Below, one piece after another: positions 14,061 through 58,342 of a stretch of DNA of 64,000 bases. The DNA is taken from positions 448,001 through 512,000 of the forward strand of contig OZ242008.1 of the NCBI GenBank assembly GCA_965204735.1. Reading direction: 5' to 3'. Position 1 is the stretch's first letter; the number at the start of each line of letters is the position of its first letter. Origin of the DNA: Longimicrobiales bacterium. Its GTDB lineage: Bacteria > Gemmatimonadota > Gemmatimonadetes > Longimicrobiales > Gaopeijiaceae. The notes beneath the pieces are model-generated. The model searched no databases and was not told the origin of the DNA. It worked only from the letters and a program-made list of their open reading frames with translations. The translations under genes and the position numbers were made by a program.

Positions 14061-14088
14061 CTGGGAGGACCGTCTGCGCTTGGGCGCC

Positions 14089-15006: not shown

Positions 15007-15025
15007 GGTGCGCCTCATGCGTTTT

Positions 15026-24362: not shown

Positions 24363-27300
24363 TCGATTCGCCAGATCCGTCCTCCTTCTCCCGCCGCCCA
24401 GCCCACCCGCCCTTCGGGAGCGAAGGCCACCGCCCAGGCGCTCACGCCGGGGATCGGCTGCCAGCTTCGGCCCGAGTCGGCGGTGTAGGCCGCGCCCGGC
24501 GGCGCCACCGCGACCACGCGCCTGCCCGCCGACGAGACGGCGACCGCGCTTCCGTACACCGCCCCCGGGACGGGAACGGGCGCCGCTTCGGTCCAGCTCG
24601 TGCCGCCGTCGGGCGTAGCTGCCGCGTTGGCGACGACTTGGTCCTGGGCCCTCAAGTCGCCCCCCAGCGCCATTGCAAGTTCCCCGCCCCCGGCAGCAAG
24701 CGTGAACGCGCCCGCGGCCGGTCCCGCCGGAAGGGGAAGGGCGGTCGCGGTCCAGCGGCGGCCGTAGTCCCGGGTGACCAGGAGACGGGCGGCGTCGCCG
24801 GCGCCGGTTCCGATCCAGCCTTGCCCCGACGGCCCCGCAAGCGCGCACGTGCCGCTGGCGGCGAAGCCCCCCTCCGAGCCGGCCGCCGGGGGCAGGTCGC
24901 GAGGCAAGACGCGGCTCCAGCGCTTCCCCCCGTCGCCGGTGACGAGGACGTAGGGGACGCCGTCGAACGAGTCCCCGTAGGCGAAGCCTCTGTCGGCGTC
25001 CCAGAAGTCGAGGCAGTCCAGGAAGCCGTCCGGCTCGTCCATGAGGAAGTCCAAGCGCCACGACTCGCCGCCGTCCCTGGTGGCGTAGATGCGGGACGAG
25101 GGGCCGCTGCCCGAGGTCATCGCCACCGCCGACTCCCAGGAGAAGGCGTGCACGTCGCGGAACTGCAGGGAGTCGCCTCCGGGAGCCGAGACTCGGCGCC
25201 ACGAGCCGCCGCCGTCGTCGGTGCGAAGCAGGACCCCGCCGTGTCCGCCTGCCCACGCCACCTCCTCGGAAACGACGCTGACCGCCTGGAGGACCATTGC
25301 GACGCCCGACTCCTGCTCGGCGACGATGGGGTCGGCGCCCCCCGCGCCTTCGGTCGCGTCGCCCTCGGCCCCCGCGCCTCTGTCCGTCCCGGCGGCTCGT
25401 CCCGCCTCTGGGTCGCCGCCGGCCTCTGGGTTGCCGCCCGCGTCTTCGCCTCCGCCCGCTTCCAGGTCGCCGCCCGCTTCCGCGCCTCCGCCCGCTTCCG
25501 CGCCCCGTCGCCGGTAGATCTGCCGCGCCTCCTCGAACTGGGCGAAGACGTGCTCCTTCTCCCGCTCGGAACGCCATCCGGGCCACTCCCGAGCCATCGC
25601 TTCCAGCTTGTCGATCCATCGGACGGCGTAGTCGGCGGCGGCGGCGCTGCGCACGGGCCGGCCCGCCACGCGCACCCACACCGGGTTGGTGAACGCCTGG
25701 GGGTAGGTCGTGTCCAGCGGCCAGCGGTCCTCCCGCCGTCCTTCGACCCGCAGGTGGAACCACCCGCTCCCGGGCACGGCGACCCGTTCGTCCATGGACA
25801 GTTCGCGCCGGTTCCCGTCGAACGCCCACTCCCGCACCACCTCGCCGTTGAAGACCAGCTCCGCCCGGTCCAGCGCCACTACGCTCCACACCCTCCCGCG
25901 CACCGACACTTGGCCGGGAGCATCCAGCTCCACGTCGCCTCCCGGCCCTCGGCCGTCCACCGAGAACTCGATCAGCGGCCCGGAGCTCGCGTACGCCCGG
26001 CCCGCCCGCAGCCCAGCGAACCAACCGTCCATGGACAGGCCCCCGTCGCGAGTGCGCACGTAGGTCCGCATGGAACCCACCAACGGCGTCGCGTGAAGGC
26101 TGGAGATCGAGTCCTCGCCGCCGACTGCGGCCACCCGGAACCCATTGTTCCACACGGCGTAGAGGGGAGGCCAGCCGTCTTGCGGCGTGGACCACTCCAC
26201 CGCGTCGGCGGCCGCCAGCGCCGCGTCCACGATGAAGCCCTTGGCGCCGCCCAGGTTCCCCTCCAGCGGGTCGCCCGAGTAGAACGAGTGCACGTATCCA
26301 GTCGTCGCCCCTTGAGCCTTCGCCTTCCGCAGCATGTCGGTGTTGCTGGGGTACAGGCTCTCTATTGCGGTGCCCTCGTACCCGGTGGCGTAGGGCGCGA
26401 TCAGGTGGTCCCGGTGTCCGAACATGAACACGTGCCCGTAGAAGGGCGGGCGGTACTCCTGGCCCACCACCAGCATCCGCTCGGGCTCGGAGAGCGGGTG
26501 CGCGCCCCCGCCGGGAACCCAGTACTGGTGGTCGAGGACGCGGTTGTCCTTGTTGGCCACCTGCTCGTTCACGACGTCCTGGTCCTCGGCGGCCGACATC
26601 ATCATCAAGTTGGACAAGGAGTTGCGCAGGTTGCCGGCGTAGTTCATGTGCACGTGGGTGGAGCCGGAGAACCACCCGTCGTCCGACACGTCCGACACCT
26701 CTTCCAGCACCACGGCCAGGGCGGCGACCTCGCCTTCGCGGATCTCCACCTGCCGGGTGTCGGGACGTGTCTCGAAGCCCCGAACCACCGTGATTCGGGC
26801 GGGGCCCACGGGCAGCTCGACGGTGAAGGAACCGGGGTGGTGGAAGACCCTGTCGCCCTCGCGGCTGACTCGGGCGTAGGCGTCGGCGGGGGCGTAGAAC
26901 TTGCCGTCCGCCGCCTCCAGGTGGACCCGCGTGGCCATTGCCCGGCCCGCTTGGTCCAACGTCGCGACCGAGAGGGTTCCCATGGGCCGGGCCCAGCGTC
27001 GCTCGGTGATTTCGACCTTCCGCAGGGCGCCGCCGTTGGTCTCCAGAAGGTGGAGGTGGGGAAGGCCGTCCCCGCCGCCGTCCCCGTGAGCGCCCGCCGA
27101 GGCTTCTCCGTTGGCCACGAAGGCGATCCATTCGGCGTCTGGAGACCAGCGGGGGTGAAAGGCGTCGTGCCGGAAGAAGGTGAGCTTGTACGGTTCGCCG
27201 CCGACCGTCGGCTGCACGTAGAGGTTCTGGAACTGATCGGCGGCCCCCGCCGTGGAAGAGTAGACGAAGCGCTTGCCGTCGTACGCCACGTCGGGCTGGG

Positions 27301-28219
27301 TGCGGTACAGCGTCTGTTCGTCCAGGACGACTCGGCGCTCCTCGATGCCGCCGGCCTTCGCGGGCACGCGATAGACGTTGCCGCTGCCCAGGGCCACGTC
27401 CCGGTTGGAGACCAGCAGCAGCTCGTCGCCCCCCGGAAGCCACGCCGGCGAGATGTGCATGTCCCACGAACCGAAGTAGAGTCGGTCGCGCCCGAAGGAG
27501 TTGTCCTCGGTGACCGCTTCGGGCGGGCCGGTCCAGCGACCGTCGGCGAAGGGGCGGACGTAGACGTTGAAGTATCCGCTGGGCGCCGTGGAGACGTACG
27601 CGATCCGGCTCCCGTCCGGCGAGAAGCGGGGGTCGGCATGAACGTGGCGGGGGTCGCCGGGGCTGGTCGGGCCGGGGCTGGTCGGGTTGCCGGGACTGGT
27701 CGGGTTGCCTGGGTCGGTCGGGTCGTCGGGGTTGGCCAACTCGCCGGGGCCGGTCAGAGACAGACGCTCGCCGGTGGCGGTGTTCATGACCTCGAGGGCT
27801 ATTGCGCCGCCCCCGTCGTCGGCGGTGTAGACGAGCCACTCGCCGCTTGGGGAGTAGTTGGGGGACGAGTAGTAGTCGGCGCCGTGGACGACCTCCACGG
27901 CCGTGCCCGTGGCCGGGTCCACTTCCCAGATCGAGCCGCTCATCGACACGGCGATCCTCTCGCCGTCGGGACGCCACTCCGGATACCAGGGGGACGAGGC
28001 CGGGGCGGGGGGAAGGTAGAAGTTGTGCATGTAGTTGCCGCCGTGGGCGGCCGCGGGGTAGGCGCGCTGGGCGGCCGCGGCGGCGGTCGGCAGGACCGAA
28101 GCGAAGACCGAGGCCAGGACCAGGACGGCCGGCAAGGCCGAGCAGGCGGGCGGGAGCTTCGCGGCGCGGGTCCCGGCGGAACCGGCGGGAGACCAAGGAT
28201 GGAAGGAATGGCGGGTCAT
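24356..28219 (-). CDS. Fusion: PD40/TolB repeats + CehA/McbA-family (PHP-like) metallohydrolase + BNR/Ycf48-like propeller
   Basis: PEWRPDG/PRFSPDG/PRWSPD repeats; WFSGSTHVHMNY, GQEYRPPFYGH, GGEDS, AFTNPVWV; then LLRTDDGGGSW/YATRDGGESW Asp boxes. Confidence 0.82.
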   Translation of the reverse strand: MTRHSFHPWSPAGSAGTRAAKLPPACSALPAVLVLASVFASVLPTAAAAAQRAYPAAAHGGNYMHNFYLPPAPASSPWYPEWRPDGERIAVSMSGSIWEVDPATGTAVEVVHGADYYSSPNYSPSGEWLVYTADDGGGAIALEVMNTATGERLSLTGPGELANPDDPTDPGNPTSPGNPTSPGPTSPGDPRHVHADPRFSPDGSRIAYVSTAPSGYFNVYVRPFADGRWTGPPEAVTEDNSFGRDRLYFGSWDMHISPAWLPGGDELLLVSNRDVALGSGNVYRVPAKAGGIEERRVVLDEQTLYRTQPDVAYDGKRFVYSSTAGAADQFQNLYVQPTVGGEPYKLTFFRHDAFHPRWSPDAEWIAFVANGEASAGAHGDGGGDGLPHLHLLETNGGALRKVEITERRWARPMGTLSVATLDQAGRAMATRVHLEAADGKFYAPADAYARVSREGDRVFHHPGSFTVELPVGPARITVVRGFETRPDTRQVEIREGEVAALAVVLEEVSDVSDDGWFSGSTHVHMNYAGNLRNSLSNLMMMSAAEDQDVVNEQVANKDNRVLDHQYWVPGGGAHPLSEPERMLVVGQEYRPPFYGHVFMFGHRDHLIAPYATGYEGTAIESLYPSNTDMLRKAKAQGATTGYVHSFYSGDPLEGNLGGAKGFIVDAALAAADAVEWSTPQDGWPPLYAVWNNGFRVAAVGGEDSISSLHATPLVGSMRTYVRTRDGGLSMDGWFAGLRAGRAYASSGPLIEFSVDGRGPGGDVELDAPGQVSVRGRVWSVVALDRAELVFNGEVVREWAFDGNRRELSMDERVAVPGSGWFHLRVEGRREDRWPLDTTYPQAFTNPVWVRVAGRPVRSAAAADYAVRWIDKLEAMAREWPGWRSEREKEHVFAQFEEARQIYRRRGAEAGGGAEAGGDLEAGGGEDAGGNPEAGGDPEAGRAAGTDRGAGAEGDATEGAGGADPIVAEQESGVAMVLQAVSVVSEEVAWAGGHGGVLLRTDDGGGSWRRVSAPGGDSLQFRDVHAFSWESAVAMTSGSGPSSRIYATRDGGESWRLDFLMDEPDGFLDCLDFWDADRGFAYGDSFDGVPYVLVTGDGGKRWSRVLPRDLPPAAGSEGGFAASGTCALAGPSGQGWIGTGAGDAARLLVTRDYGRRWTATALPLPAGPAAGAFTLAAGGGELAMALGGDLRAQDQVVANAAATPDGGTSWTEAAPVPVPGAVYGSAVAVSSAGRRVVAVAPPGAAYTADSGRSWQPIPGVSAWAVAFAPEGRVGWAAGEGGRIWRIDW

Positions 28220-28356
28220 GGCGTCTGGGCAGCTCGGGAAGCGGCGGGCGCGACAGGTGAACGTTTGCCGCCCGGTGATCGTACCGCTGCACAAGCGATC
28301 GCACCAACGCCCACGAACGCACCAACGCCCACGAACGACGAGAGGAACCGGCTGAA

Positions 28357-28908
28357 ATGACTGAAGCCGCCGAGACCGAAGACCGAAGCGGCGCTCTCGC
28401 GTCGCAGGACGCGACCGACAACGAGCAGGACGCGACCGACCAGGATCGGCGCCCCAGGGACCGGCTTCCCGAGGGCCCGCGCCCGTTCGGCGTCGATCGC
28501 TTGCCCCCGCTCGCGGGGTGGCCCCGGCGTCCGCTGCTGCGGTGGACCTGCGGCGGCGCGGCGGCGGTGGCGGCCGTCGTCCTTCCGTTCTTGCTGGGAC
28601 GAGCCTTCGGACCGGCGCTGCGCGGAGCGGCCATGGTGACCACCGCGACCAGCCCGGCGGCTTCGGTGGTCGCGTTCGACGACGCTTCCCGGACCGCCGC
28701 CGCGTTCATGGCGGGCAGGGACACCGCCACGGTGAGGGTGCGCCGGCCGACGACGGCCCGCGAACTCCTCCGCCTCTACCACCTGGAGAACAACCTTTCG
28801 GCCCGGGCCGCGCTCCTGGAACAGCTTGGGGTTGCGGACCTGGAGACCGTGCTGCCCGAGGGCTCTTCCTTCTCCTTCGTGCTCTCGCCGGAACGCCTGG
28901 AACCGTGA
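28357..28908 (+). CDS. Single-TM hypothetical protein with possible LysM-like C-terminal domain (operon gene 1)
   Basis: TM AAAVAAVVLPFLLG; tail VRVRRPTTARELLRLYHL...LPEGSSFSF resembles the LysM pattern. GAGAGG RBS. Confidence 0.6.
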   Translation: MTEAAETEDRSGALASQDATDNEQDATDQDRRPRDRLPEGPRPFGVDRLPPLAGWPRRPLLRWTCGGAAAVAAVVLPFLLGRAFGPALRGAAMVTTATSPAASVVAFDDASRTAAAFMAGRDTATVRVRRPTTARELLRLYHLENNLSARAALLEQLGVADLETVLPEGSSFSFVLSPERLEP

Positions 28909-29525
28909 GCGGGAGGGACAGGCGCGCGCAGGACGGGCAGGAACGCGAGCAGGTGCTGTACGAGCGCGAGCAGGAGCTGACGAAGCTGTACCGCCAGGTC
29001 CTGGAGGCGGTCCGCGAGGACGCCGAGGAGGCGATCGGGGAAGCAGTGCGAAGCGCGGCGCCGACGGCGGCCGACTGGGAAGGGATCGTGCGGCGCGTGG
29101 TGCGGGAGGAGATGGCGGGGGTCGCGCCCGCCGGAGCCGAGGGGGCCGGTTCGGCGCCCGCGCGCAAACCGGCTTCGAAGCTGTGGCCGACGTGGGCTGC
29201 GGCCGGCGTGGGCGCCGTGGGGGCGGCGATGCTCGTGGGAGCGGGGTGGTGGATGGGAAGGCTGTCGGGACCGTGGCCGGAGAGGGCGACGGACGCGGGC
29301 GGCGTTCCAGCGGTCGCGACGGACACGACGGCTCCGTCCGTGGACGCGACGCCGGACGGAGCGGCGGACACGGCGGCGGGCGTGAGGACGGACACTCTGA
29401 TGGACATTACGACGGACACAATGGGCGCAAACGGCAATCTTTTGCAGGTCGTTCCGCCGGACACGACACCGGACAGTGCAAGGGACATTTTGGGCCTCGA
29501 AATCTTGCCGAAAGGTGTCCCGTGA
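28905..29525 (+). CDS. Single-TM hypothetical protein: N-terminal helical region, low-complexity T/D/A tail (gene 2)
   Basis: GTGA overlap; TM WAAAGVGAVGAAMLVGAGWW. Confidence 0.65.
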   Translation: MSGRDRRAQDGQEREQVLYEREQELTKLYRQVLEAVREDAEEAIGEAVRSAAPTAADWEGIVRRVVREEMAGVAPAGAEGAGSAPARKPASKLWPTWAAAGVGAVGAAMLVGAGWWMGRLSGPWPERATDAGGVPAVATDTTAPSVDATPDGAADTAAGVRTDTLMDITTDTMGANGNLLQVVPPDTTPDSARDILGLEILPKGVP

Positions 29526-31615
29526 CCGTGGCGGGGTCGGGCGCGAGCGGTTGCGGGGCGCAGCGCCGGCGCCTGGACCGCCACCTCTTCGCGTCCAACG
29601 TCTCCGCCTACAACTCGGCGTGGGAGACCTACGGCTGGACCGAGGGGCTGGACCGGGTCCGGGCGGGACGGCTGGAGGAGCGGGTGCCGTGGGGCGCCGA
29701 GCTGGCGGAGTCGGCCGATCCGCCGACGCTCGTTCATGGAGGCGCCCCTGGCCGAGGCGCCGCGTCGCAAGACCCCGCCCTGGGGCCGATAGGACTGCCG
29801 GAAGCCTTCCTGCCGCTGGACGGCCGCCTCGGCTTCTGCCTGTCGGGCATCGTGCGGCCTTCGCACGACGGAGCGCCCGCCCGTCGGCCTCGCATCGCAA
29901 CCCATACGCTCCTCTTCCACGAGTCCCTCTTCCGGGAGATCGACGGCTTTCCGCAGGGTCTCCACCTGGACTTGCCGGCGACCACGGACGGCGCGGAGGC
30001 GAGTTGGTTCGCCCAGCTCCGCCGCTCCGCGCCGGCGGCTCCGGGAGTGCTGGCCGAGCCTCGGTACGCGCCGAATCCGCAGGGGTTCCGCCGCGCCCGG
30101 CTGCAAGAGGTGGCGAGACTGGCGCGGGCCGCAGTCGCCGCGCTTGGAGCCCATCCGGCCCGGGAAGCTCTGGAGGAGGTGTACCGCGCCGTCGGCGGAG
30201 TGCTCGAACCAGCCGGCGACGCAGGGCGGGGGAAGGTCTCCGCCGGAGGTCCCGTCCGGGTGGCAGGAGGACGGCGCGGGGCCTGCCTTCTCATGCGCCT
30301 GGCTTGGCTGTCGCTGCCGCTGGCGGATCGCGCCCGCGTCTTCTACTCGATCCTCGACCTTCGGGGACGGCATCCGACTCCCTGCCTGGTTCCCGGGGCC
30401 GGGGCGCCCGCGTCTGCCCCGGGCACCGCACTGGACCCGCGCACCGCACCGGCCTCCCGCGCCGCACTGGCCGACTCGGGCGGGCCGGACCCCCTGGGCG
30501 CATGGGCCGCGCTGGTTCTCGGGGCGCCGAAGGAGTACGCCCGCGTCGGCGCCAGGATCGACGCGAGGGGCATGTCTCTCTATCGGCGGGAGAGCGAGCC
30601 CTATGTCGTCCACTGGGCGCCGGCGCGGCTCGGGGCGGTCGATCTGCTGGAGCGGGCCCGCCTCGAATCTCGGGGCGCCGGGCGGTGGCGAGGGCTTGGC
30701 CGGCTGGCGGCGGCGGACTTGGGCGCGCGGTCGCCGGACCGACCGGCGGAGTGGGTCGAGGCCGTGCCTCGCGACCCGCTCCTGGCGAACAACCGCCGCT
30801 TTCACGAGGGACTGGTTCGCGGGCTCGGCGGCAGGCTTCCCGTCGCCGGCGAAGCGGGACCGCCCGAAGCGCGGGTCGCGACGGCGCGCTTGGCCGTCTT
30901 GGCAGGCACCCGCGCCCGCCGTCGGGAGGACGACGTACCCGGCGGCCCGACTGTTGACTCGGGCCAGGTCTTGGCGGACACGCGCGCCCGCCGTCGGGAG
31001 GACGACAGACTGGCGCTGCTGGTCAAGGGGATGCGGTCCTTGGCGGAAGCCGGCGCCGACGCCGGCGAGCTCGGGGCCGCCGTCCGAGGAACGCAAGAGC
31101 ACGACGGGGACGAGGCGGTCGGGCTGGCGGGCATCGCCGCCCAGATTCTTGGGTCCCTGGGCCGGGGCACCGACGTCCCGACGATGGTGGCGGCCGCCGG
31201 CCTCCCGGATCCGATCGCCCCCGCCTTGGCCCGGGACTTGGTCGAGGTGTTCCTGGCCGGGTCCAATCGAGCGCGTTCGTCTTGGCAGGCCCTGCTGGAA
31301 AGGGTCTGGACGAGCGCCGCGGCTTCCCGTGCGACAGGCTCGGACCCCTCGGACCCCGGCCATGCGGAGTTGGAAGCGCTTCAGCGGCTGGCGTGGATCG
31401 AACGGCGCAGGTGGGGCTCCACGCCCCTAGTCTCCCTGGCGGCGAAGGGCCGACCCGGAGCCCTCGCCTTGGCGCGCCGTCTCATGGAACACGAACCCGG
31501 GCCGCCGCTCTCCGTGTTCCTGGCGCTGAGGGCGGTCGTGGTGCGCCGCCCGGCTGGGGCCCGCCGTTCCTTGGCACGAGGGCGCTCCTCCCGCAACACG
31601 GCCGGCTCGGCATGA
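29522..31615 (+). CDS. Hypothetical protein with GAP1-N-like (GTPase-associated protein 1) N-terminal domain (gene 3)
   Basis: GTGA overlap. N-terminal RHLFAS..YGWTEGL and HDGAPARRPRIATHTLL resemble the GAP1-N D..GR....H pattern. Directly upstream of a GTPase. Confidence 0.55.
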   Translation: MTVAGSGASGCGAQRRRLDRHLFASNVSAYNSAWETYGWTEGLDRVRAGRLEERVPWGAELAESADPPTLVHGGAPGRGAASQDPALGPIGLPEAFLPLDGRLGFCLSGIVRPSHDGAPARRPRIATHTLLFHESLFREIDGFPQGLHLDLPATTDGAEASWFAQLRRSAPAAPGVLAEPRYAPNPQGFRRARLQEVARLARAAVAALGAHPAREALEEVYRAVGGVLEPAGDAGRGKVSAGGPVRVAGGRRGACLLMRLAWLSLPLADRARVFYSILDLRGRHPTPCLVPGAGAPASAPGTALDPRTAPASRAALADSGGPDPLGAWAALVLGAPKEYARVGARIDARGMSLYRRESEPYVVHWAPARLGAVDLLERARLESRGAGRWRGLGRLAAADLGARSPDRPAEWVEAVPRDPLLANNRRFHEGLVRGLGGRLPVAGEAGPPEARVATARLAVLAGTRARRREDDVPGGPTVDSGQVLADTRARRREDDRLALLVKGMRSLAEAGADAGELGAAVRGTQEHDGDEAVGLAGIAAQILGSLGRGTDVPTMVAAAGLPDPIAPALARDLVEVFLAGSNRARSSWQALLERVWTSAAASRATGSDPSDPGHAELEALQRLAWIERRRWGSTPLVSLAAKGRPGALALARRLMEHEPGPPLSVFLALRAVVVRRPAGARRSLARGRSSRNTAGSA

Positions 31616-32979
31616 GCGAAGAGCGCTCCGAGAGCCAAGTCGCCCGGATTCTGGAGCGGCTTCGGAACGAGGTCATGCGGGAGAGGGCCGGCGACGCGCC
31701 CGCTGCCGAGGTTGCCCCCGCCGCCGAAGACGCGGCGGCCGCGGAAGACGGGCCGGAATCGGCGCATCCGGCGTCGCCAGCCCAGGGGTTCCCGGCTCCG
31801 CCGCCCGATGGTTCGCCGCCTGCGTTTCCGACTCCCGTCGCCCGGACGCCCGACGAGCGGTCGGCGGACGAGCTCCGCCCACGGGCTACCCGCGCCGGTC
31901 GCCGTCGCGGCTCCCCAGGCCTGCACAGCAAGCGGGTGCAGGCGGCGGACCGCTCCGCATCCTCCACCGCCGTCGAGGAGCTCGTGGAGCACCGTCGCCG
32001 GAGGCGGGGCAAGCTCTTCGGCATCGCCGGACTTCCCCGCCACGGCAAGACGACCCTGGCCGACCGCCTGCGGGAGCGCGCCGCCGATCGACCGGGGGCC
32101 GACCTGCGCTACAACAAGACCGAGCGGGGCGACGTCAACATCTACTACCTGCCCGGCAGGCGGGACCACCACGTCCTGGTGGACATGGCGGGCGAGGACT
32201 ACCAAGTGCTGGGGGACTACGAACGGGAGCTGCCCCAACTCATGGAGGCGTTCCTCTGGCCGGTCCTCCAGCGGCTGGACGGATTGGCGCTTCTCATGGC
32301 GCTGCCCGTCGTCTGGTCGGGCTGGAACCGCGGCGACGATCCGCGCCGCCGGGCGCCCTCGTCCGACGAGCAAGAAGAGATGGCCGCGGCCGCGGAACGC
32401 ATGGCGAACGCCCACAAGATGCTGCTGAAGTACGCGGTGGTGGCGCTGAAGTCGAAGGCGGCCCGCCCTCCCACCCGGGACCAGGTGGACGACGCCTTCA
32501 AGCGGGCGCCCAAGTACGACCGACCGGTCGCAGTCGTGCTCTCCAAGGCCGACCTCTACACCGGCCGCGCGCGGGACCGCCTTCACACCCCCGACCTGCC
32601 CCGGCTGGGCCACCGGACGCCCGTCGGGCTGCGGCCGGGCGTGTCGGAGCCCCTGCTGACGGCCGCCGCCCACTTCCCCGACTTCCTGGAGTTCCTGGAG
32701 CGCCGAGTGCGGTGCTTCAAGTGGTCGTTCTGCCAGGCGCTGGAAGACCGAAGCCCCGAACCGGACCCCTTGGACGCGGCGGGCGACGCGGAACCGGGCA
32801 CGAACACTCTGATCGGCGGCGACGGGGTGGTGGACTTCCTGGCCCGCCATCCGTGGCGGGCGCCCGGCCTGTCGTCGGCCATGGCGATCCGGCTGGACCG
32901 GCGCATCAGGCGCGAAGCGTGGAGCCGACTCGGGCAAGAGCGGCGGTCGGCCCCGAATCCCGCCGGGCGCGAGGGCTGA
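31612..32979 (+). CDS. TRAFAC-class GTPase, double-GTPase-like (gene 4)
   Basis: G1 GLPRHGKT (32029), G2 NKT, G3 DMAGE (32182), G4 SKAD (32542). Long disordered N-terminus; ATGA overlap. Confidence 0.82.
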   Translation: MSEERSESQVARILERLRNEVMRERAGDAPAAEVAPAAEDAAAAEDGPESAHPASPAQGFPAPPPDGSPPAFPTPVARTPDERSADELRPRATRAGRRRGSPGLHSKRVQAADRSASSTAVEELVEHRRRRRGKLFGIAGLPRHGKTTLADRLRERAADRPGADLRYNKTERGDVNIYYLPGRRDHHVLVDMAGEDYQVLGDYERELPQLMEAFLWPVLQRLDGLALLMALPVVWSGWNRGDDPRRRAPSSDEQEEMAAAAERMANAHKMLLKYAVVALKSKAARPPTRDQVDDAFKRAPKYDRPVAVVLSKADLYTGRARDRLHTPDLPRLGHRTPVGLRPGVSEPLLTAAAHFPDFLEFLERRVRCFKWSFCQALEDRSPEPDPLDAAGDAEPGTNTLIGGDGVVDFLARHPWRAPGLSSAMAIRLDRRIRREAWSRLGQERRSAPNPAGREG

Positions 32980-32980
32980 G

Positions 32981-35008
32981 GTGGGCTGGGCGACGGTCTT
33001 CGGCGTCGGCGCCCGCCGGGTGGCGCCGGACGGCCCGGCGCGGTGGGTTCTGCTCGGGACGTGCGTCGCCGTGGGCGCGGCCTGCGCTTGGATGGGCCGG
33101 TCGCTGCTCGGGTCGGCGCCGGCCGAGGACACGCTGGCCAGCGCGCACCGGTTCCTGGACCAGCCCCTGCGGCTGGGGCGAGCACTGGACGTGTCGTGGC
33201 GCTTCGCGGTGAGGGACGGCGGCGGGATGGCCGGGCGCGTGGACGACCTGCTCGCTCCGCCCCTGCCTCCCTTCCTGTGCTCGGCGAGGTGGCCCGGCGC
33301 GAGGGCCGACGAGGCCCGCGTGCTCGATCGGACGATCCGCCAAGCCCAGCAAGCCGCAGCGGCCGACAGTCGCGCCGGTCTCGCGAACGCGGTCGAGTCG
33401 CTCGAGAACCAAGTCGCAGCCGCGTCCGCCGCCGCCGAGCCCTTGGCTCTCTACGCCGTTGCGCGGGCAAGGGCCGCCGGCGGGGACTGGTCCGGCGCCG
33501 CCCGCGCGCTCGAGCTGGTCCCCCTCGTGCAGCGCGGAGGCGGGCCGCTGCCGGTGGTGCCTCGCTCCGCCGCCGCACAGGGCGTCGGGTCGGCGGGCGC
33601 GCCGCGCTCCCTGGCGGTTCTGGCCTTCCACGCGCGCTACCTGGCGGGCAGGGCGGCTCACGGCCGAGGCCGTCCGGAAGACGCGATCGGTCACTTCCGC
33701 CGCGCTCTCAACGCGGTCCGCTACGTCCTGGACGGCTCTCGCGGAGCCGGACCTGGAGGGCACTTCCGGCGAATCGAGATGCGGCCCGGGGTCCTCTCCT
33801 GCTCCGGCGCCGCGCAACCCGGCCTCACGTCGCTGGACGCCTACTCCGGGCTGGTGGCGGCCTACTTGGCGGCCCCGGAGTTCCGCGACCCGGAGGGCTT
33901 GGCCGGCGAAGTCGCCCGCCGTCGTCTGGAGATGGACCCGGGCGACCCGCTGGCGCCTCTGGTTCGGTACGCCCAGCAAGCGGCCGCCGACGCTCGGCCA
34001 GCCCAAGGCTCGATCCCCGAGAACGTCCTCTGGGCGGCGTCCAACTTGCAGCGGGTCTACCACTACAACCGACTGCGCCCGGACCCTCGGCTTGCCGCCG
34101 GCAGGGCCGTCCTGACTTGGCAGGTGCTCGACCGCCCGGAATGGACGCGGGCGCTGGAGCTGAACGCGCCGGCGCAGTGCGAGATGCTCGCCGGCGTGGC
34201 CGCCGGAGTGGGACGGGAGGGCGGGACCATCGGCGGTCCGGCGGGCTCGGCGGCAGCCGGCGACAGCGCCTGGGCGGCCGTGGCGGTCCACACCTTCGCC
34301 CGCCTGGAAGAGCGGTGTCCCGAGGGAGCGGACGAACCTGTGGCCGAATCGGTCCGAGAGCGATGGCTGGACAGATCGGGAGGGTTCATTCACGGGGGAG
34401 TGGTGGTCCGCTACGAGGCGCGGCGGCGAGAGCTGGAGGCCGGAGGGAGAGGCGTCGGGCTTTCGGGCGGAGCCGCGACGGGAGCGGGCGAGGTCCTGGA
34501 CGAGGCTCGAAGCCACGTTCGGACGTTCTGCCAGGGCGCGGTGCCGCCGGACCTGAGCGCAGGGATCGATCCCCGCGCGGCGTGCGAGTTCGTGTCGGCG
34601 TGGAGGCGGGCCGTCTTCCACGACGTGGCCGACCAGATGGTCCAGCAGGTGCGCGGCGGCGGCGTCCCCGCGGCCCGGGACGCGGCAGAGTACGTGCGGA
34701 CGGTGGAGGCCGCCGTCGCCCATGCGGGCCTTCGTCCGTCCGATGTGTACGGCGTCGAGGAAGTGGCCCCGCTGCTTCGGTCGCAGGGGGGCGTCCGCGC
34801 CTGGAGCGGAAGGCTGCGCCATGCCGCCCGGAACCGGCCCGCGACCGCCGTGGCGGCGCTGGCGTTGCTGGGCGTCGCCGGGGTCTCGCTGGCTGTGCTG
34901 GCCTTCGTGAGCTGGTGGCGGTTCTTCCTGCTGACGCGAACGGACTTCTACGCCGACGAGGCCGCCGAGCGGAGAGCCCGCGGGCACGCCCGGGAGCTGG
35001 GTCCGTGA
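32981..35008 (+). CDS. Membrane protein with two TM segments flanking a large helical/TPR-like domain (gene 5)
   Basis: N-terminal TM WVLLGTCVAVGAACAW; TPR-like ARYLAGRAAHGRGRPEDAIGHFRRAL; C-terminal TM AVAALALLGVAGVSLAVLAFVSWW. Confidence 0.7.
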   Translation: MGWATVFGVGARRVAPDGPARWVLLGTCVAVGAACAWMGRSLLGSAPAEDTLASAHRFLDQPLRLGRALDVSWRFAVRDGGGMAGRVDDLLAPPLPPFLCSARWPGARADEARVLDRTIRQAQQAAAADSRAGLANAVESLENQVAAASAAAEPLALYAVARARAAGGDWSGAARALELVPLVQRGGGPLPVVPRSAAAQGVGSAGAPRSLAVLAFHARYLAGRAAHGRGRPEDAIGHFRRALNAVRYVLDGSRGAGPGGHFRRIEMRPGVLSCSGAAQPGLTSLDAYSGLVAAYLAAPEFRDPEGLAGEVARRRLEMDPGDPLAPLVRYAQQAAADARPAQGSIPENVLWAASNLQRVYHYNRLRPDPRLAAGRAVLTWQVLDRPEWTRALELNAPAQCEMLAGVAAGVGREGGTIGGPAGSAAAGDSAWAAVAVHTFARLEERCPEGADEPVAESVRERWLDRSGGFIHGGVVVRYEARRRELEAGGRGVGLSGGAATGAGEVLDEARSHVRTFCQGAVPPDLSAGIDPRAACEFVSAWRRAVFHDVADQMVQQVRGGGVPAARDAAEYVRTVEAAVAHAGLRPSDVYGVEEVAPLLRSQGGVRAWSGRLRHAARNRPATAVAALALLGVAGVSLAVLAFVSWWRFFLLTRTDFYADEAAERRARGHARELGP

Positions 35009-38000
35009 CCGTCCTGGTTCTGGGGCTGGCGACGCTCCTCGGCGCGGGCTGGATGGCGCGCCGATCGACGCCCGGCCGCCGCTCGTGTCTTTGGGTCCTC
35101 GCCATCGGCGCCTTGACGGCGGGGCAGACGTGCTGGCAGCGCGACCGCTTGGCGTCGTACCAGGTGAGGCTGCTGGGCCAGCGCTTCCAGCCGGGGAGCG
35201 ATGGCTTGGTCGCCGAGGTGTCGGGCGACAGGGACCGGGCGGACTACTACCTGCCCGGCGCCGGGAACGATCCCGTGGCCGTCCTGCAGCTCGACTCGGC
35301 GGGCGGGGTCGCGGTGCGGGCGCCCGCGCCGACCTCGGCGGCAGCCGTCGCCGTGGTGACTACGCCTCGTCGCTGGAGGGGCGGAGATCGGGTCGTGCTG
35401 GGCTCCGTGCCCGTGGAGCCGGGAGATCGGATTTGGGTCGGCGGCGAGGGCGCGACCGAGGTGTTCACCTTCGCGCGGTCGAGGGTCTCCCTGCTCCAGA
35501 GGGCGAGGATCGGGGGGACGCGGGACCAGCTGGCGCTCGGAAGCGGCGACGCCGGGGACGCGGGGGGTCCAGCGGCGATCGTGCCCTACCCGGAAGGCGC
35601 CGGAGTCCTGGGGCTCCTGCCACGGCGCCCCGGCGTCTACCAACGCACCTATCCGCTGGCCGAGCTGGCGGCCGCAGGAGGATTCGACGGGCTGGGCGTG
35701 GCGGGCCTCCGCTCCTTTCTCTACTACCGCGAAGGCTCGGCTCGCTTGGCGGTCCTGGACGACCTGGTCGAGGTGCTCTCGCCCGACGGGACGGCCAAGA
35801 CGCCGGTCGAGAGCGCTTCCGCATGGCCGGGGAGCGGGCGAACGCCGGTGGTGACCGTGGCGGGCTTGCCGTACCGGGACTTCCCCGACCCGGGGCTCGC
35901 GGCCGGCGAGCGGTACGGGGCGAGGCCGCTCCGCAGCTTCCGCGCCCGAGTGGACGGAGAGTGGATCACGGTGCAGGGCGCGCGGGCGGAAGTGCACTCC
36001 GTCGAGACGGCCGGGCTGCCTCCCGCAACCCTCGCCCCCTCGGCCCTGGCGGGCGGGTCTGGAGGCGGTTCGATGCTTCACTTGGTCCGCCTGGCGGTCG
36101 GAGACGCGCCCGAAGGACCCGCGGGGCTGACCCTCGCATCCCCTGCCAACGTGTTCGCGGCGGCGGGAGAGGCGGTCCTGCGGCTTCCCCAAGCTCCGTC
36201 CGCCGGATGGTTCGAGCTCCTGTCCCCCTCGGGTCAAGCCCGCTGGGAGACCGGACGACCCTTCACCTTGAGCGACGGGGAGAAGGGGTTGCTGCTGCGG
36301 GTCGACGGGCTGGCCGCCTCCTGGTCGTTCCTGCTGCTGCTGACGCTGCTCTTCCTCTTGGCGGCGGCTCCGTTCGCGCTGGTCGAGACCACGGGCGTGG
36401 TGCGGGGCTTGGCCCTGGCCGCCCTGGGAATCGCCGCGCTCCGCGTGCTCCTCTCCCTCTCCGCCATGGCGCGCTACCCCTTCGTGGACGAAGGCCACCA
36501 GATCGGCCTCTGGCTGGTCCCGGCGCTGCCTTGGTTCGTGTGCGCTCTTGGACGCAAGCGCGGCGAGACGTGGGCTGCGGACGGGGCCGGGCTCGCCCCC
36601 GCCGCCCGCGCCCCCGCCATGGCGCCGCCCGGCGCGGGGCGTCGAGACGTTCGGCCTTCAGCCCCGTGGAGCGCGCGGGCCGACCTTGCCGCGGCAGCGC
36701 TCGGCGCGCCGCTGGTCTTCCTGGCGGCCGCCCTCTTCCCGACCACTCCCGCCAAGTCGCTTGTGCTCTCCGCCGCCGTCGTCTGCGCGGCGGTGGTCGC
36801 CCTGCTGCCCATGGAACGCACCTTGCTGGCCTTCGGGCGCAGCGCGGCCCGGCTGCGCCGCCTGGCCAAGGCGCTTCCCGCCCGGCTTCGGAAGACGGCC
36901 GCCAGCTGGCCGGGCGCGGTGGCGGGAGTGGCGATCGTGGCGGGCCGGGTCGTGCTGGACGCGGCGGGGTTCAGGGAGCAGATCGCCTTGGGCGGCACCC
37001 GAATCGGCCTTTCCGTGCTGCACACCCCGGTCGCCCTGATCGCCTTCGCCCTCCTGGCGTCGGCTCACCACCGGCGTGTCGCCCGTGCGGGACGTGGCCG
37101 GGTCGCCGGTGTGGGACGCGCTCGCGTCGCCCCGGCGGAAGACGGCCGCGCCACCCCCACGGAAGACGCCCGCGCCACCCCGACGGAAGACGCTCGCGTC
37201 GCCTCGGCGGAAGACGGCCGCGTCACGGAAGACGGTCTCGCCGCCCTGGCGGAAGACGCCCGCGCCACCCCCACGGAGCGCGCCGGTTGGGGCCGCACCG
37301 CCGGTCGCTCGCTGATCGACCTGTGCGCCTTCCTAGCCTTCGCCTATGTCGGCACAAGCGTGGCGGTCTCCGACTTCGGAGTCGCCTTCACCACCCTGCC
37401 GGGTCCCCTCGTCGTCCTTGCCCTGGTCGGTGCGTGGTGGGCAAGAGCGCGAGCCCAGGGCCGGGCCGACGGCGGCGGCAAGCGCACAGAGAGCATCCGC
37501 GCCGCCCCCGGCAGCTGGTGGCAGGCCAAGGGCGTCGACCGCAGGGCGGCTCTGCTGGCCGCGCTGCCGCTGATCTTGTTCGCGACGCTCCAGGCGGCCC
37601 CCGGCTTGCTCCGTCCCTTCTTGCCCGACACGGAGGGTCCCAGGTCCGGGCTGGAGGAGTGGAGCCGCAACGAGCTCCTGCTGCTGGAGCGGGGCGACCC
37701 CGACGCCCTGCGGCTCATCGGCGAGAGCCGGAGCGAGGCCCTGGCGGTGATGCGCGAGACGATGCGTTCCTACACCCGTGGCAACTGGTTGGGACAGGGG
37801 TTCCTGGAGGGCCGCGTGTCGTCGCAGATACGCACCACGGCGACCCGCGAGCACGTGGTCACCGGGTTGCTGGCCAGTCAGTGGGGAGCGCCTGGGACGC
37901 TCGGCCTTCTGGCCCTCCTGGCTGCGGTCCTTCGCCCGCTGGCGTCGGCGGCTCGTCCCTGGTCGAGCCGCGCCCACTTCGTCTCGGCGACGGCTCTTCT

Positions 38001-38220
38001 GACCTTCTCGACGGCCGGCGTCTACATGGTCTTCGCCAACTACGGCTGGGCCATGTTCACGGGCAAGAACGTCTACCTGCTGGGGCTCGACTCCCTGGGC
38101 GACACCCTTGAAGCCCTGGCCTTGCTGGGAGTGGCGGCGGCCGCGCTGGCCCGGCCGGAATCGGCGGACCGGAGTCCTCCCGGCGCCCCGCTTCTCCCAG
38201 CCCCCGGAGGCTCGGCATGA
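35005..38220 (+). CDS. Divergent SEDS (FtsW/RodA/SpoVE-like) polytopic membrane protein with large N-terminal beta-rich domain (gene 6)
   Basis: Many TM helices with SEDS-like landmarks in order: SDFG, GNWLGQG, TATREHVVTGLLASQWG, FTGKNVYLLGLDS. Adjacent to a PBP; GTGA overlap. Confidence 0.65.
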   Translation: MTVLVLGLATLLGAGWMARRSTPGRRSCLWVLAIGALTAGQTCWQRDRLASYQVRLLGQRFQPGSDGLVAEVSGDRDRADYYLPGAGNDPVAVLQLDSAGGVAVRAPAPTSAAAVAVVTTPRRWRGGDRVVLGSVPVEPGDRIWVGGEGATEVFTFARSRVSLLQRARIGGTRDQLALGSGDAGDAGGPAAIVPYPEGAGVLGLLPRRPGVYQRTYPLAELAAAGGFDGLGVAGLRSFLYYREGSARLAVLDDLVEVLSPDGTAKTPVESASAWPGSGRTPVVTVAGLPYRDFPDPGLAAGERYGARPLRSFRARVDGEWITVQGARAEVHSVETAGLPPATLAPSALAGGSGGGSMLHLVRLAVGDAPEGPAGLTLASPANVFAAAGEAVLRLPQAPSAGWFELLSPSGQARWETGRPFTLSDGEKGLLLRVDGLAASWSFLLLLTLLFLLAAAPFALVETTGVVRGLALAALGIAALRVLLSLSAMARYPFVDEGHQIGLWLVPALPWFVCALGRKRGETWAADGAGLAPAARAPAMAPPGAGRRDVRPSAPWSARADLAAAALGAPLVFLAAALFPTTPAKSLVLSAAVVCAAVVALLPMERTLLAFGRSAARLRRLAKALPARLRKTAASWPGAVAGVAIVAGRVVLDAAGFREQIALGGTRIGLSVLHTPVALIAFALLASAHHRRVARAGRGRVAGVGRARVAPAEDGRATPTEDARATPTEDARVASAEDGRVTEDGLAALAEDARATPTERAGWGRTAGRSLIDLCAFLAFAYVGTSVAVSDFGVAFTTLPGPLVVLALVGAWWARARAQGRADGGGKRTESIRAAPGSWWQAKGVDRRAALLAALPLILFATLQAAPGLLRPFLPDTEGPRSGLEEWSRNELLLLERGDPDALRLIGESRSEALAVMRETMRSYTRGNWLGQGFLEGRVSSQIRTTATREHVVTGLLASQWGAPGTLGLLALLAAVLRPLASAARPWSSRAHFVSATALLTFSTAGVYMVFANYGWAMFTGKNVYLLGLDSLGDTLEALALLGVAAAALARPESADRSPPGAPLLPAPGGSA

Positions 38221-40814
38221 ACACACGAACCGCGACGGGGGTCGTCTCCGGCCTGTCCGTCTTGATCGTCGTCGCGTCCCTTCAGGAGGAGCCGGCCGGG
38301 TACTGGGCGCCGGAAGGCTTCGTGAGCCGGTCGGACGACATTGTGGCCAAGGGCGGGCTGGAGCTCATTTGCGGCGCGCGCGACTCAATCGTGGTCCGCT
38401 TGGAGCCGGACAGCCCCGACGAACGCTTCTTCCGGTCCAGCTACCTGCGGGCCGACGTGCGACGCTTCAACGCCGACCCTTCCGCCGCCCGCTCGCCGTT
38501 CCTGGTGGATGGTTGCCGCCTCTTGGGCGTGGACCCCTTCTACCATCGGGTCGACCTGCCCTACAACCGCGTTCCCCAGTGGACGGGACCCGTCCGCTTC
38601 GCCCAGGCCAGCCGAAGCGCCGCCTTCCGCGGCGGGCGGGACCAGCGCCTGCAGGTGGTCCATCCCCTGGAAAGCTTGGACGCAAGCACGAGCGAGCGGG
38701 TGGGGCTGGCTCGCCGACGGGCCTCTGCGCGCACCGAATTCCTTCGCTTCGAGGCGCCCCGCAGCCCGGAAGTGCTGGCGGAGGCGTACTTCGTGGGCGA
38801 CGAAGCGCCCGTGCTGGCGGACCGTCGGGACGTGGGCGCGCCCTCCATGCTGCGGCTGAACGGGTTCGCCGTGCCGCCGGGCCGGATCGCCCGGCTGGAG
38901 ACGGGGGACTGGGTCCAGCTGCAGCACCGGGAAGAAGTCTTCACCTACTTGGTGGACGGTTCGGACCGAGCCGGGCTGGTGTCGACGGCGTCGGCGGCGA
39001 ACGGGGGGACGCGACGGTACCTGGTCCCCCACCTGGCGCCTTTCGTGAGCGACTTGGCCCGGGCCCTGGAGGGCGGCCTCCACTCCACGCCCTCGGCCCG
39101 GGACGGCGGACCCGTCTCCCGCATGGAGGTACGCCTGGCCCTCGACCGGGAGCTGGAGACGACGACCCAGGCGCTGGTGGACGAGTGGTGCGAGCGGCAG
39201 CGCCTGCCCCGCCGTCCCCGAGCGGTTTCGGCGCTGGTCATGGACGCCTTTCGAGGAGACGTGCTGGCGATGCCCACCTGTCCCGGCGAGGCGGTCCTGG
39301 AAGACTACGGCCAGCTCTCGCGCCGCCTCCGGTCCCGCTACCTGCGCAACCAGAACCTGGTCCTGCACCCGGGCGGCTCGGCGCTGAAGCCGTTCTGGGC
39401 CGCCTCGATCGCCACGGCCTACCCCGGACTGCTGGACCTGGAGATTCCGGAGCACCCGCCCGGCGGCGTGGAGGACGTGTTCGGCTGCGCCTTGACCGTG
39501 CCCTACGGGTCCGGCGGACACGAGGGATGGGAAGGGTTGGAGGCGTTCCTGCGCACCTCGTGCAACCGCTACATGGTGGAGGCGGCCACGGCGGCGCTCC
39601 TGGCCGGCGCTGGGAGCCTGCCCGAGGGCTTGGCGCAAGGGTTGCCCGGACGGAACTCGCCCGGACGCGGCCCGCCCGGCCAGGGTTCGCCCGGACGCCT
39701 GCTCGCGGACGGCTCTCCCGCGCCCAGCGGCGCCAAGCGGGAAGTGCGCTTCTGCGACCAAGTGGTCGAAGTGGCGCTCGCCGACGGCCTGCCTTTCACC
39801 GGCGGTTCGTGCGAGGACCTTCGCCTTCTCGGCGAACGCTTCGCCCCCGGGCTTTCCTTCGAGCAGGTGACCGGCGCGGCCGTCTACCGCGATCGGGCGC
39901 CGGCCGCCGCTGCCGCCGGGGCCGAAGCCGCCAGCTTGGACGACGCCTACCGAGCGGGACGCTACCGGCTGGACCTCTGGCGCGGTCCCCTCGACGCCCT
40001 GCGGGTCGCCGGGGACACGGCGAACCCCGTGCACACGCGCCTGCGCTTCTCCGCCGTGTCGCCCCAGGTCACCAACTTGGCCCTCAACACCGTCGAGGAG
40101 CTGCGCCGGGACTGGGTGAACCTGCTCCTGGGCGGCGAGAACTCGCGCTGGAGCAACTTTCAGCTGGCCGAGGCCATGTCGCGCCTCATGACCGGCCGGG
40201 ACGTGCGGGGTCGGTTCGTCGTCTCTCCCACTGCGTGGGGAAGGGAGGCGGTCGGGTCCGCCGAGCCCCTGCCGGAAGACGCCCTGCACCCAGGCGCGCG
40301 CCGCCGGGTGCTCCACGCGATGGAACGGGTCGTTGGTCCCGGCGGCACCGCGGTCCGCCTTGCCCCGGCTGCGCGCCGTCTCGAGTCCGTGCTGCGCTCC
40401 GTGCCCGGCGCCGAGGACCACGACGTCTACGTCTTCGCCAAGACCGGAACGCCTGCCGTGTCCGTGCCCCTGCGAGACGGCCCCTTGACCCGGGAGGGGT
40501 CGGTGCTGGTCCTGGGCGTGCTCGTCGTGCCCCCGGAGGCGGGCCGCCGGGCCTCTCGCCGCCAGCCGGAGTGGATATCCGCGTGCCCGCTGGCGCCGGA
40601 CCTTCGGGCAGGCGTGCTGGGCGTGCCCCCTGTCGACTTCCTGGGCGACAGCTCTGGGCCGGGCGCCGCGCCGATGGGCTTCTCGGTCGCGTTCTTCCTG
40701 GACGACCTGGACCCTCGGGGCGGCGACGCGTCTGCGACGGAGCTGGCTGCCGACTTCCTGGAACCCTTGGCCAACTACGCCGCCCAGCGACTGGAACGGC
40801 AGCTTCGCAGGTAA
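38217..40814 (+). CDS. Penicillin-binding transpeptidase-domain protein (class B-like) with possible FHA-like N-terminal region (gene 7)
   Basis: VRLALDRELE, ALVMDAFRGDVLAM, SxxK = SALK (39378), SxN = SCN (39558), KTG (40440). Confidence 0.85.
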   Translation: MNTRTATGVVSGLSVLIVVASLQEEPAGYWAPEGFVSRSDDIVAKGGLELICGARDSIVVRLEPDSPDERFFRSSYLRADVRRFNADPSAARSPFLVDGCRLLGVDPFYHRVDLPYNRVPQWTGPVRFAQASRSAAFRGGRDQRLQVVHPLESLDASTSERVGLARRRASARTEFLRFEAPRSPEVLAEAYFVGDEAPVLADRRDVGAPSMLRLNGFAVPPGRIARLETGDWVQLQHREEVFTYLVDGSDRAGLVSTASAANGGTRRYLVPHLAPFVSDLARALEGGLHSTPSARDGGPVSRMEVRLALDRELETTTQALVDEWCERQRLPRRPRAVSALVMDAFRGDVLAMPTCPGEAVLEDYGQLSRRLRSRYLRNQNLVLHPGGSALKPFWAASIATAYPGLLDLEIPEHPPGGVEDVFGCALTVPYGSGGHEGWEGLEAFLRTSCNRYMVEAATAALLAGAGSLPEGLAQGLPGRNSPGRGPPGQGSPGRLLADGSPAPSGAKREVRFCDQVVEVALADGLPFTGGSCEDLRLLGERFAPGLSFEQVTGAAVYRDRAPAAAAAGAEAASLDDAYRAGRYRLDLWRGPLDALRVAGDTANPVHTRLRFSAVSPQVTNLALNTVEELRRDWVNLLLGGENSRWSNFQLAEAMSRLMTGRDVRGRFVVSPTAWGREAVGSAEPLPEDALHPGARRRVLHAMERVVGPGGTAVRLAPAARRLESVLRSVPGAEDHDVYVFAKTGTPAVSVPLRDGPLTREGSVLVLGVLVVPPEAGRRASRRQPEWISACPLAPDLRAGVLGVPPVDFLGDSSGPGAAPMGFSVAFFLDDLDPRGGDASATELAADFLEPLANYAAQRLERQLRR

Positions 40815-41005
40815 GCGGTCCGGCGCCCATCTTGCCCCCGGGGCGCCCGACGTGGAACGCCGCCGGCGCTGCCGTGTCGTCCGTTTTCGGTCCGCCCATC
40901 TTGCCCCCGGGCCTCTCGACGCTTCACCTTGTCGCCTGGAGCGCAAGCCGTTGCCCACGAGCGCAAGCACCGGCGCAAGCCAAGCGTCACTTCCCGGAGG
41001 ACCTC

Positions 41006-47182: not shown

Positions 47183-47195
47183 CGTGGCGCGCCTC

Positions 47196-55062: not shown

Positions 55063-55482
55063 CGAACGGATCGTTCTGCCGCGCGACCTTGTGTGACCTC
55101 GGAACGCCGTCTGAAGGTGGGCATGACGACGGGCGTAGCGCAACCATGGAAGGATGGACAGGCTTGGAGCCAAGTCCCCGGGCGGTCCCGTCTGGGCAAC
55201 CCACTCGCATGGTCGGCTCTGCCCAAAATCCGACATGAGATTTCGGGGCCATAGAATGTCCAAGCCGATGTCCCATTTTTAGGTCACGAGTGTCCAGTGA
55301 CCTTCGGGACCTTGGGCGGCTCCGGTCCCTGGTCCGCCAGATCGGCCCGGAGTACCCTGTTGACCGCCCCGTTACGTTCCTTCCCCGATCTTCCGACCGG
55401 CGCATGGCACGCTGGCCTCCTGGGTGTGTCCAGCTCCGCCCGGACGGAGCACGCAGCCAACCAAGCGAAGAGGCGGACACCC

Positions 55483-58327: not shown

Positions 58328-58342
58328 CATGCCGCCCGGGCG

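Follow-up and report, generated by a model that had tools for sequence, protein, structure and literature searches.

What does a bacterium gain from an operon that encodes, side by side, the parts of a GTPase switch and what looks like a pair of enzymes for building cell wall? The question is raised by seven genes at positions 28357–40814 of a 64-kb stretch of DNA (contig OZ242008.1, positions 448,001–512,000; hereafter the window) from a bacterium whose closest named relatives are Longimicrobiales of the phylum Gemmatimonadota. Pairs of a SEDS protein and a penicillin-binding protein (PBP) form the core polymerases of the wall and are targets of antibiotics; in those known to us, activation comes from the MreB or the FtsZ machinery. 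The operon described here is real, conserved, accessory and apparently undescribed; it would appear to be a variant among GTPase systems of the GAP1-N2 type, one that carries a hidden peptidoglycan synthase clade as its payload. The reading that we favour, at a little under an even chance, is that it encodes a GTPase-gated accessory peptidoglycan synthase which is switched on locally for wall repair or thickening upon damage to the envelope or attack on it.

The operon and its SEDS-PBP pair

All seven open reading frames (ORFs) are open, lie on the forward strand and follow one another with 4-nt overlaps at five junctions and a 1-nt gap at the remaining one. Because the DNA here has a GC content of 74% and is full of shadow ORFs, their codon composition matters: in every one of the seven, GC at third codon positions (0.84–0.88) exceeds that at second positions (0.54–0.61), which is a coding-type profile. 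Related genomes keep the same seven genes in the same order. An earlier note on this DNA had described one coupled operon without fts-type genes nearby, and both statements hold, the latter on the basis of FtsW/RodA and PBP family matches that lie at 1.39, 1.76 and 2.58 Mb of the genome (the window occupies 0.45–0.51 Mb; mre and mur genes were not searched for separately). These matches represent ordinary FtsW-FtsI and RodA-PBP2 loci plus one further PBP, and genes 6 and 7 would therefore be a third SEDS-PBP pair. A scan of the seven proteins against Pfam and NCBIfam returned nothing above cut-off.

Gene 6 (35005–38220; 1071 aa) carries a predicted SEDS-fold glycosyltransferase at about residues 458–1056, together with extra N-terminal membrane helices and a beta-rich domain of 390 aa. 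When its predicted model (pLDDT 82.3, pTM 0.86) was compared with 48,161 solved chains, E. coli RodA came out best (8tj3_B; Z 17.6, root-mean-square deviation (rmsd) 4.2, 312 residues aligned), followed by a second RodA (Z 16.4) and FtsW (Z 16.0); these three matches span 311–314 residues, and the next drops to Z 8.9. FtsW also ranks first in a Foldseek search, at an E-value of only 0.005. Profile comparisons link gene 6 to a sister clade at 97% and the sister clade to canonical SEDS proteins at 96%, and a weak direct alignment sets E949 on the catalytic aspartate of the HTDF motif. This glutamate is present in 54 of 55 close homologues and D790, at the DxG position, in all 55, while across the family the catalytic position is occupied by D or E, and DxG is kept, in 19/19 rows. 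Passages in PMC10449877 report that Asp262Ala inactivates E. coli RodA and that Asp159Val lowers its activity. By its model, gene 6 is predicted to fold like RodA/FtsW, and its catalytic position is acidic. It has no match to Pfam PF01098, the best family member reaching 21.5 bits against a cut-off of 26.4, and a PDB sequence search with its alignment found none either. Lysine and arginine counts in alternate loops put the 390-aa beta domain, for which the ESM Atlas gave no usable match, on the same side as the catalytic loop, and we predict that it faces outward. In a midpoint-rooted tree of 44 rows with long branches, the 19 family SEDS proteins form one clade (support 100/100) apart from 23 canonical Gemmatimonadota RodA/FtsW proteins and two acidobacterial fusions.

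Gene 7 (38217–40814; 865 aa) encodes a membrane-anchored, class-B-like protein with a family-specific N-terminal outer domain, and its sequence makes it a transpeptidase with all three active-site motifs (S388-x-x-K391, S448-x-N450 and K742-T-G). The residues S388, K391, S448 and N450 are found in 51/51 homologues and KTG in 48–49 of these; all three motifs are retained in 13/13 rows from distant clades. The family profile matches class B PBP structures (PBP2/FtsI; best E 1.3e-4) with the SxxK serine inside the alignment, and a PDB sequence search with gene 7 alone gave no match. Some relatives exceed the PF00905 cut-off. The missing annotation of gene 7 is explained by the Pfam transpeptidase model, which matches just 1 of the 51 close members even at E 0.1. 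The N-terminal anchor is present, and the PBP_dimer (pedestal) domain was found in 0/51 homologues. In locus L054 (genome G345), at about 13100–15600, the operon is intact but for its PBP gene, which is broken up between reading frames, through decay or an assembly error. Short stretches of genes 6 and 7 that look FHA-like by eye matched no FHA family.

With the known pairs of SEDS protein and class B PBP (RodA-PBP2, FtsW-FtsI, SpoVE-SpoVD) these two proteins have in common the SEDS fold, the acidic catalytic position and DxG on one side and a membrane-anchored transpeptidase with SxxK/SxN/KTG on the other, encoded by genes that are adjacent or fused (the fusion occurs here in four loci, L041, L048, L051 and L106). 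They differ from the canonical pairs in that the SEDS protein belongs to a separate clade, is about three times longer and has the outer beta domain and the Glu for Asp, in being invisible to Pfam and showing no PBP_dimer match, in lying outside division and elongation clusters, and in their patchy occurrence. A separate clade with such support, the change from Asp to Glu and large novel outer domains would also suit a SEDS-fold protein whose substrate is not lipid II but another lipid-linked glycan, after the manner of the related ligase WaaL (which appears in the fold list at Z 8.7), with the PBP joining the polymer, or a protein, to the wall. We regard this as very improbable, given that RodA and FtsW score twice as high as WaaL, that the PBP is adjacent or fused wherever the flanks suffice, and that the operons showed no gene for sugar synthesis or for a flippase.

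The GTPase, its GAP1-like partner and the membrane proteins

If genes 6 and 7 are an accessory peptidoglycan synthase, as we favour, the candidate for its switch is gene 4 (31612–32979; 455 aa), a TRAFAC-type GTPase that is by its sequence of the DO kind. Its motifs are GLPRHGKT (G1), DMAGE (G3) and SKAD (G4); G140, G145, K146, D191, G194 and E195 are invariant in 21/21 cross-phylum rows, and E195, the glutamate of DxxGE, is also invariant in a set of 52/52. A conserved glutamate after the Walker B glycine is the defining mark of DO-GTPases in passages of PMC7159879. Neither Pfam DO-GTPase1 nor DO-GTPase2 matches gene 4 above its cut-off, orthologues match under it, and the second GTPase of L101 is the only one in the operon family to pass the cut-off (DO-GTPase2, 37.2 against 27 bits); a PDB sequence search with the gene 4 alignment found no match. 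Several relatives of gene 4 have added N-terminal CxxC pairs or a second GTPase.

The adjoining gene 3 (29522–31615; 697 aa) encodes a soluble protein which sequence comparison identifies as a GAP1-type partner, GAP1-N2/GAP1-M-like. GAP1-N2 clusters head its ESM Atlas results (0.93, the family being shared by 10/10), GAP1-M matches at the same place in 11 of 45 homologues, all under the cut-off (best 23.2 against 24 bits), and the gene 3 profile aligns at 96% to acidobacterial orthologues, one of which narrowly passes the GAP1-N2 cut-off. Gene 3 itself has no Pfam match, and GAP1-C was not matched in the 45 homologues, in which divergence could hide such a domain. Searched against 1.84 billion proteins, the profile found 46 relatives and did not clearly reach canonical GAP1; as GAP1-M occurs above cut-off in 0/301 Gemmatimonadota genomes, there is no canonical GAP1 alignment with which gene 3 could be compared directly. 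The connection to the alphaproteobacterial set is weak when made directly (E 9.5e-4) and reaches 85% via Acidobacteriota, and links to the candidates in L041 and L053 are not significant.

The first part of this protein is predicted to be longin-DENN-like (residues 12–340) and is followed by a variable region. A model of residues 1–340 (pLDDT 84.7) finds, with residues 12–340, DENND10 (Z 8.3, 241 aligned, rmsd 4.2) and the exchange-factor domain of DENND1A (Z 7.1, 232 aligned, rmsd 4.8), and then an archaeal longin, TagF, FLCN-FNIP2, C9orf72-SMCR8 and other longin-type regulators. It is the consistency of this list, together with the adjoining GTPase gene, that makes a DENN-like reading credible. 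DENN modules serve Rab GTPases as exchange factors, and longins are related to GTPase-activating proteins (GAPs) of the MglB type, according to passages of a 2012 survey which trace only the longin part of DENN to prokaryotes (PMC3521125). What gene 3 would have in common with DENN modules (DENND1A, DENND10), longin-type regulators, TagF and MglA-MglB is a predicted longin plus DENN-like layout of about 330 residues beside a small GTPase; it differs from DENN modules in that identity is only 6–8% and Z no higher than 7–8, the likeness being one of predicted fold. The type VI secretion regulator TagF aligns over the whole module (29522–30541; Z 5.8) and is the top Foldseek row. The model hints that TagF, GAP1 and DENN share one architecture.

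Three membrane proteins complete the operon. Gene 5 (32981–35008; 675 aa) has predicted spans at about residues 20–38 and 625–643 around a large TPR-like outer domain; its TPR matches lie under the cut-off and its acidobacterial orthologues are linked at 98.8%. A GTPase encoded at L029:3571–6714 is fused to a membrane span, a TPR-like region and a second span, which is the layout of genes 4 and 5 in one chain, and GTPases with their own membrane span and TPR-like tail are found in L029, L048 and L051. Gene 1 (28357–28908; 183 aa) has one predicted span at about residues 63–81 and a small C-terminal outer domain conserved across seven aligned homologues; it has no Pfam or PDB match, and six of its homologues have no Pfam match. 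Gene 2 (28905–29525; 206 aa) consists of an acidic helical N-terminus, one span and a low-complexity tail, and is without the conserved Cys-containing outer domain of its 265–292-aa homologues, whose copies of that domain have no Pfam or PDB match. A peptidoglycan-binding look of the tail in the gene 2 family found no profile support. For genes 1, 2 and 5, profile links to the alphaproteobacterial counterparts are not significant. Most of the identities proposed in the earlier note are upheld by these comparisons (GAP1-like, GTPase, TPR-like, PBP and the SEDS fold of gene 6, the last by its predicted model). Two labels call for amendment: a LysM domain in gene 1 was seen by eye only and is unsupported by profile comparison with four LysM-bearing tails (E 0.027), and in place of a double GTPase the operon of the window genome has one, two being found in four loci of the family.

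Distribution and relation to known systems

The operon is present in 5 of 61 near relatives with its gene order kept, and strong GTPase matches (E <1e-100) and strong PBP matches mark the identical five among 401 Gemmatimonadota genomes, where they lie 6–8 kb apart on one strand; these five carriers are kin and not independent trials. A further 87 weak GTPase matches (E 1e-6 to 1e-3) were discarded as short P-loop or low-complexity hits. Besides the 5/61, the wider family occurs in 11/401 Gemmatimonadota and, by a broader profile, in 2/201 Caulobacterales and 13/301 Acidobacteriota, two of these 13 being ordinary fusions that we excluded; the spread is patchy throughout. Scanning genomes with the PBP recovered 30 loci, Alphaproteobacteria and Acidobacteriota included, and in metagenomes all nine loci with the GTPase have an adjoining operon gene, on short contigs. 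Altogether 48 loci were tallied, of which 11 were too short to judge, 29 have a same-strand GTPase and 8 do not (29/37 assessable); most of the GTPase profile came from these same loci, so this is a count and not a blind test. Gene order varies between clades and the GTPase is retained across three phyla, Gemmatimonadota, Acidobacteriota and Alphaproteobacteria. We hold the number at three because the one locus that bears the label Wenzhouxiangella resembles those of Gemmatimonadota in type and was perhaps binned wrongly. The carrier of L033 is a named strain, Sphingosinicella sp. YJ22, and not a metagenome bin. That the GTPase/GAP1 and SEDS/PBP genes co-occur in other genomes thus agrees with the earlier note; its description of the synthase pair as dedicated proves too strong at the level of the family, since eight assessable loci of the synthase clade have no GTPase.

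The same eight loci suit a reading in which the synthase pair stands alone and merely travels with the GAP1/GTPase module, the two being co-transcribed for a shared stress response without direct control. To this we give very little probability, in view of the translational coupling, of a GTPase that is kept in three phyla although gene order changes, and of the exact co-occurrence (5/5) in this clade. A synthase gated by its GTPase stays our preferred account.

In the acidobacterial loci L102–L105, this divergent SEDS-PBP pair is accompanied by two proteins that replace the GTPase and GAP1, one a membrane protein with weak likeness to kinases and the other of PP2C-TM-LysM layout (the Pfam scan covered two of these four). 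The Gemmatimonadota loci L049, L050 and L052 have sister-clade pairs with no GTPase within about 7–10 kb, and a coiled-coil protein is added in L049 and in L048. At L106:4398–7970 a SEDS-PBP fusion is followed by two large proteins without a Pfam match, and there is no GTPase. Downstream of the PBP, alphaproteobacterial operons close with genes for one small membrane protein and for a degenerate kinase that has a PPC or SH3 tail; in L032, L035, L038 and L040 a Ter stress cluster comes next.

Besides the DENN-type and longin-type modules already compared, three groups of known systems come close to the operon. With GAP1-N2 DO-GTPase systems, as described by Kaur, Burroughs, Iyer and Aravind in 2020 (parts of PMC7159879), it has in common a TRAFAC GTPase with Glu after Walker B, an adjoining GAP1-like gene with N- and M-like regions, membrane components and mobile neighbourhoods, and, in some relatives, zinc ribbons and second GTPases. 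It differs in having one GTPase and in its hosts (Gemmatimonadota, Acidobacteriota and Alphaproteobacteria), and where tubulin, HSP70 and kinase/PP2C are the variable themes in those parts of PMC7159879, here there is a SEDS-PBP pair. The FNIII-repeat component (GASH in the N1 type) found no Pfam match among the seven genes or the scanned neighbours, and for this reason, and because scores stay below the Pfam thresholds, the operon falls outside strict membership of the GAP1-N2 systems. The second group is formed by kinase/phosphatase-linked SEDS-PBP operons, which we take to be those of the PknB-PstP-RodA-PbpA type. These likewise encode an accessory SEDS-PBP pair together with a signalling switch, and four loci of the family use a PP2C-LysM partner; L109 and L110 belong to this ordinary type, with SEDS proteins far above the Pfam cut-off that group with the canonical ones, whereas the operon described here has a GTPase switch. 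The third group, the canonical SEDS-PBP pairs, was compared above. A literature search, with most subscription journals outside its reach, found no description of a coupling between GTPase/GAP1 and SEDS-PBP genes, and no characterised system matched. None of the three outcomes that would have refuted the earlier note was thus obtained, these being a lack of co-occurrence in other genomes, the absence of a SEDS fold from gene 6 (for which that fold is predicted) and a match to a characterised system. The terms FtsW, transpeptidase and penicillin do not occur in the main text of PMC7159879, nor FtsW, RodA, PBP or transpeptidase in two of its supplements, although the source data of its Figure 1 might still list such neighbourhoods; FtsW, SEDS, transpeptidase and GAP1 are likewise missing from the accessible portion of bioRxiv 10.64898/2026.10.19.760177.

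Proposed role, genomic setting and significance

How a GTPase-gated synthase might work can be set out in steps of unequal strength. By analogy with the known chemistry of SEDS-PBP pairs, gene 6 would quite probably polymerise lipid II and gene 7 crosslink the strand. The longin-DENN-like head of gene 3, as modelled, is somewhat likely to act on gene 4 either as an exchange factor or as a GAP and so to govern its nucleotide state. Because it is membrane-spanning with an outer TPR domain, and because of the gene fusions, gene 5 may relay the signal from the cytoplasmic GTPase to the outer domains of genes 6 and 7, while genes 1 and 2 would anchor or place the complex; the assembly would replace an MreBCD or FtsA/Z/QLB activator, for which we see about an even chance. 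Coupling, fusions and topology are what lead us to infer that the GTPase controls the synthase. The weakest step is the purpose, which may be repair or fortification and not morphogenesis; this too seems evenly balanced, and is suggested by the patchy spread, which fits a conditional function, and by the background of the DO-GTPase/GAP1 family, whose members are predicted conflict systems that deploy effectors against invaders in the relevant passages of PMC7159879.

The purpose is also where the strongest competitor enters. SEDS-PBP pairs normally make shaped wall under a cytoplasmic organiser, and the GTPase/DENN-like pair could be a positional switch, comparable to MglA-MglB in polarity, under which the synthase builds a bud, stalk, tube, cell-cell junction or resting-cell wall. 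We know of no morphology common to the carriers of the family. Longin/roadblock domains act on MglA-like GTPases (passages of PMC3521125), and the stable gene content, the absence of hypervariable effectors and the lack of a match to any defence model all suit such a machine. Against it stands the empty site: in a 98% complete congener only a few hundred bases separate the two flanking genes, and neither the operon nor an evident repeat lies between them. Like the canonical pairs elsewhere in the genome, this site marks the operon as accessory. The operon has been either gained or lost between congeners at this one site, and this, together with a frequency of 1–4% per sampled group, is unusual for a body-plan trait. 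We consider a morphogenetic role unlikely, and keep to wall repair or thickening as the more probable use of the synthase.

A helicase/ATPase cluster begins 2.4 kb to the right of the operon and adjoins it in one congener too; the flanks of other relatives differ. This cluster (43251–54092 on the reverse strand, and 55297–63928) encodes a UvrD-like helicase, an AAA ATPase, a 2298-aa DEAD helicase with an MrfA zinc-binding domain, an IstB transposition ATPase and a further DEAD/ResIII helicase, its GC content falls to 0.60 at 54–58 kb, and it is likely a defence or mobile cluster. On the left (24356–28294, reverse strand) lies a gene for a WD40-like propeller protein with a BNR/YCF48-like domain which the congener copy in L008 is without. 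A terminator-like hairpin at 40864–40889 (forward strand), 50 nt 3′ of gene 7, is weak as a signal, two such hairpins being found in the region where 4.3 are expected by chance; no sigma-70 promoter match was found, no tRNA in the 64-kb window, and no copy of the operon in a plasmid search. Stress- or conflict-type genes adjoin some loci elsewhere (the Ter cluster after Sphingosinicella-type loci, a CHAT/TPR protein in L053), and these, with the effectors predicted for the parent DO-GTPase/GAP1 family, would accord with an abortive or toxic conflict system in which an invader is sensed and the GTPase frees the synthase to drain lipid II or make aberrant wall, arresting or killing the cell. That is improbable in our judgement: both enzymes look intact and constructive, the scaffold of membrane partners is large and the flanks are mostly ordinary.

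Several observations weigh against a GTPase-gated repair synthase and belong together. The synthase pair is without a GTPase in 8/37 assessable loci, of which four have PP2C-LysM and weakly kinase-like proteins, three no evident switch and one two unknown genes. Compared directly, the profile of gene 6 is only weakly similar to canonical SEDS (E 0.0017), and a glutamate replaces the catalytic aspartate. The DENN scores of gene 3 fall in the middling range of the search tool, and Foldseek gave no match at E <0.001 for its model. The L029 tail is only weakly homologous to gene 5 (E 0.03), and one relative has a frameshifted PBP gene. The operon is richer in GC than all 332 genome windows compared, and so is neither a low-GC island nor a recent low-GC arrival; PADLOC matched no model beyond a generic GTPase-type match; most relatives have ordinary flanking genes; and the gene content looks stable, with no variable effectors, unlike that of typical conflict systems.

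On the most far-reaching reading, the operon would encode a third wall-building machine beside the elongasome and the divisome, in which a switch made of a small GTPase and a DENN-like regulator of bacterial kind takes the place of MreB or FtsZ in governing a deep-branching SEDS-PBP pair. The machine would have moved between three phyla or more as a single cassette, exchanging its switch for a kinase/phosphatase one in one lineage; we advance this tentatively, its chance being again somewhat less than even. What has come to light is a synthase clade that standard annotation misses entirely and that is linked to a GTPase switch. The DO-GTPase/GAP1 family, so far predicted, thereby gains an output that can be measured, in lipid II polymerisation, penicillin binding or wall labelling, and the operon offers a way to ask whether bacteria use a DENN-like exchange factor. 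If the reading as a third machine is true, bacterial wall synthesis would here be run under the logic that eukaryotes use for Rab-controlled membrane traffic.

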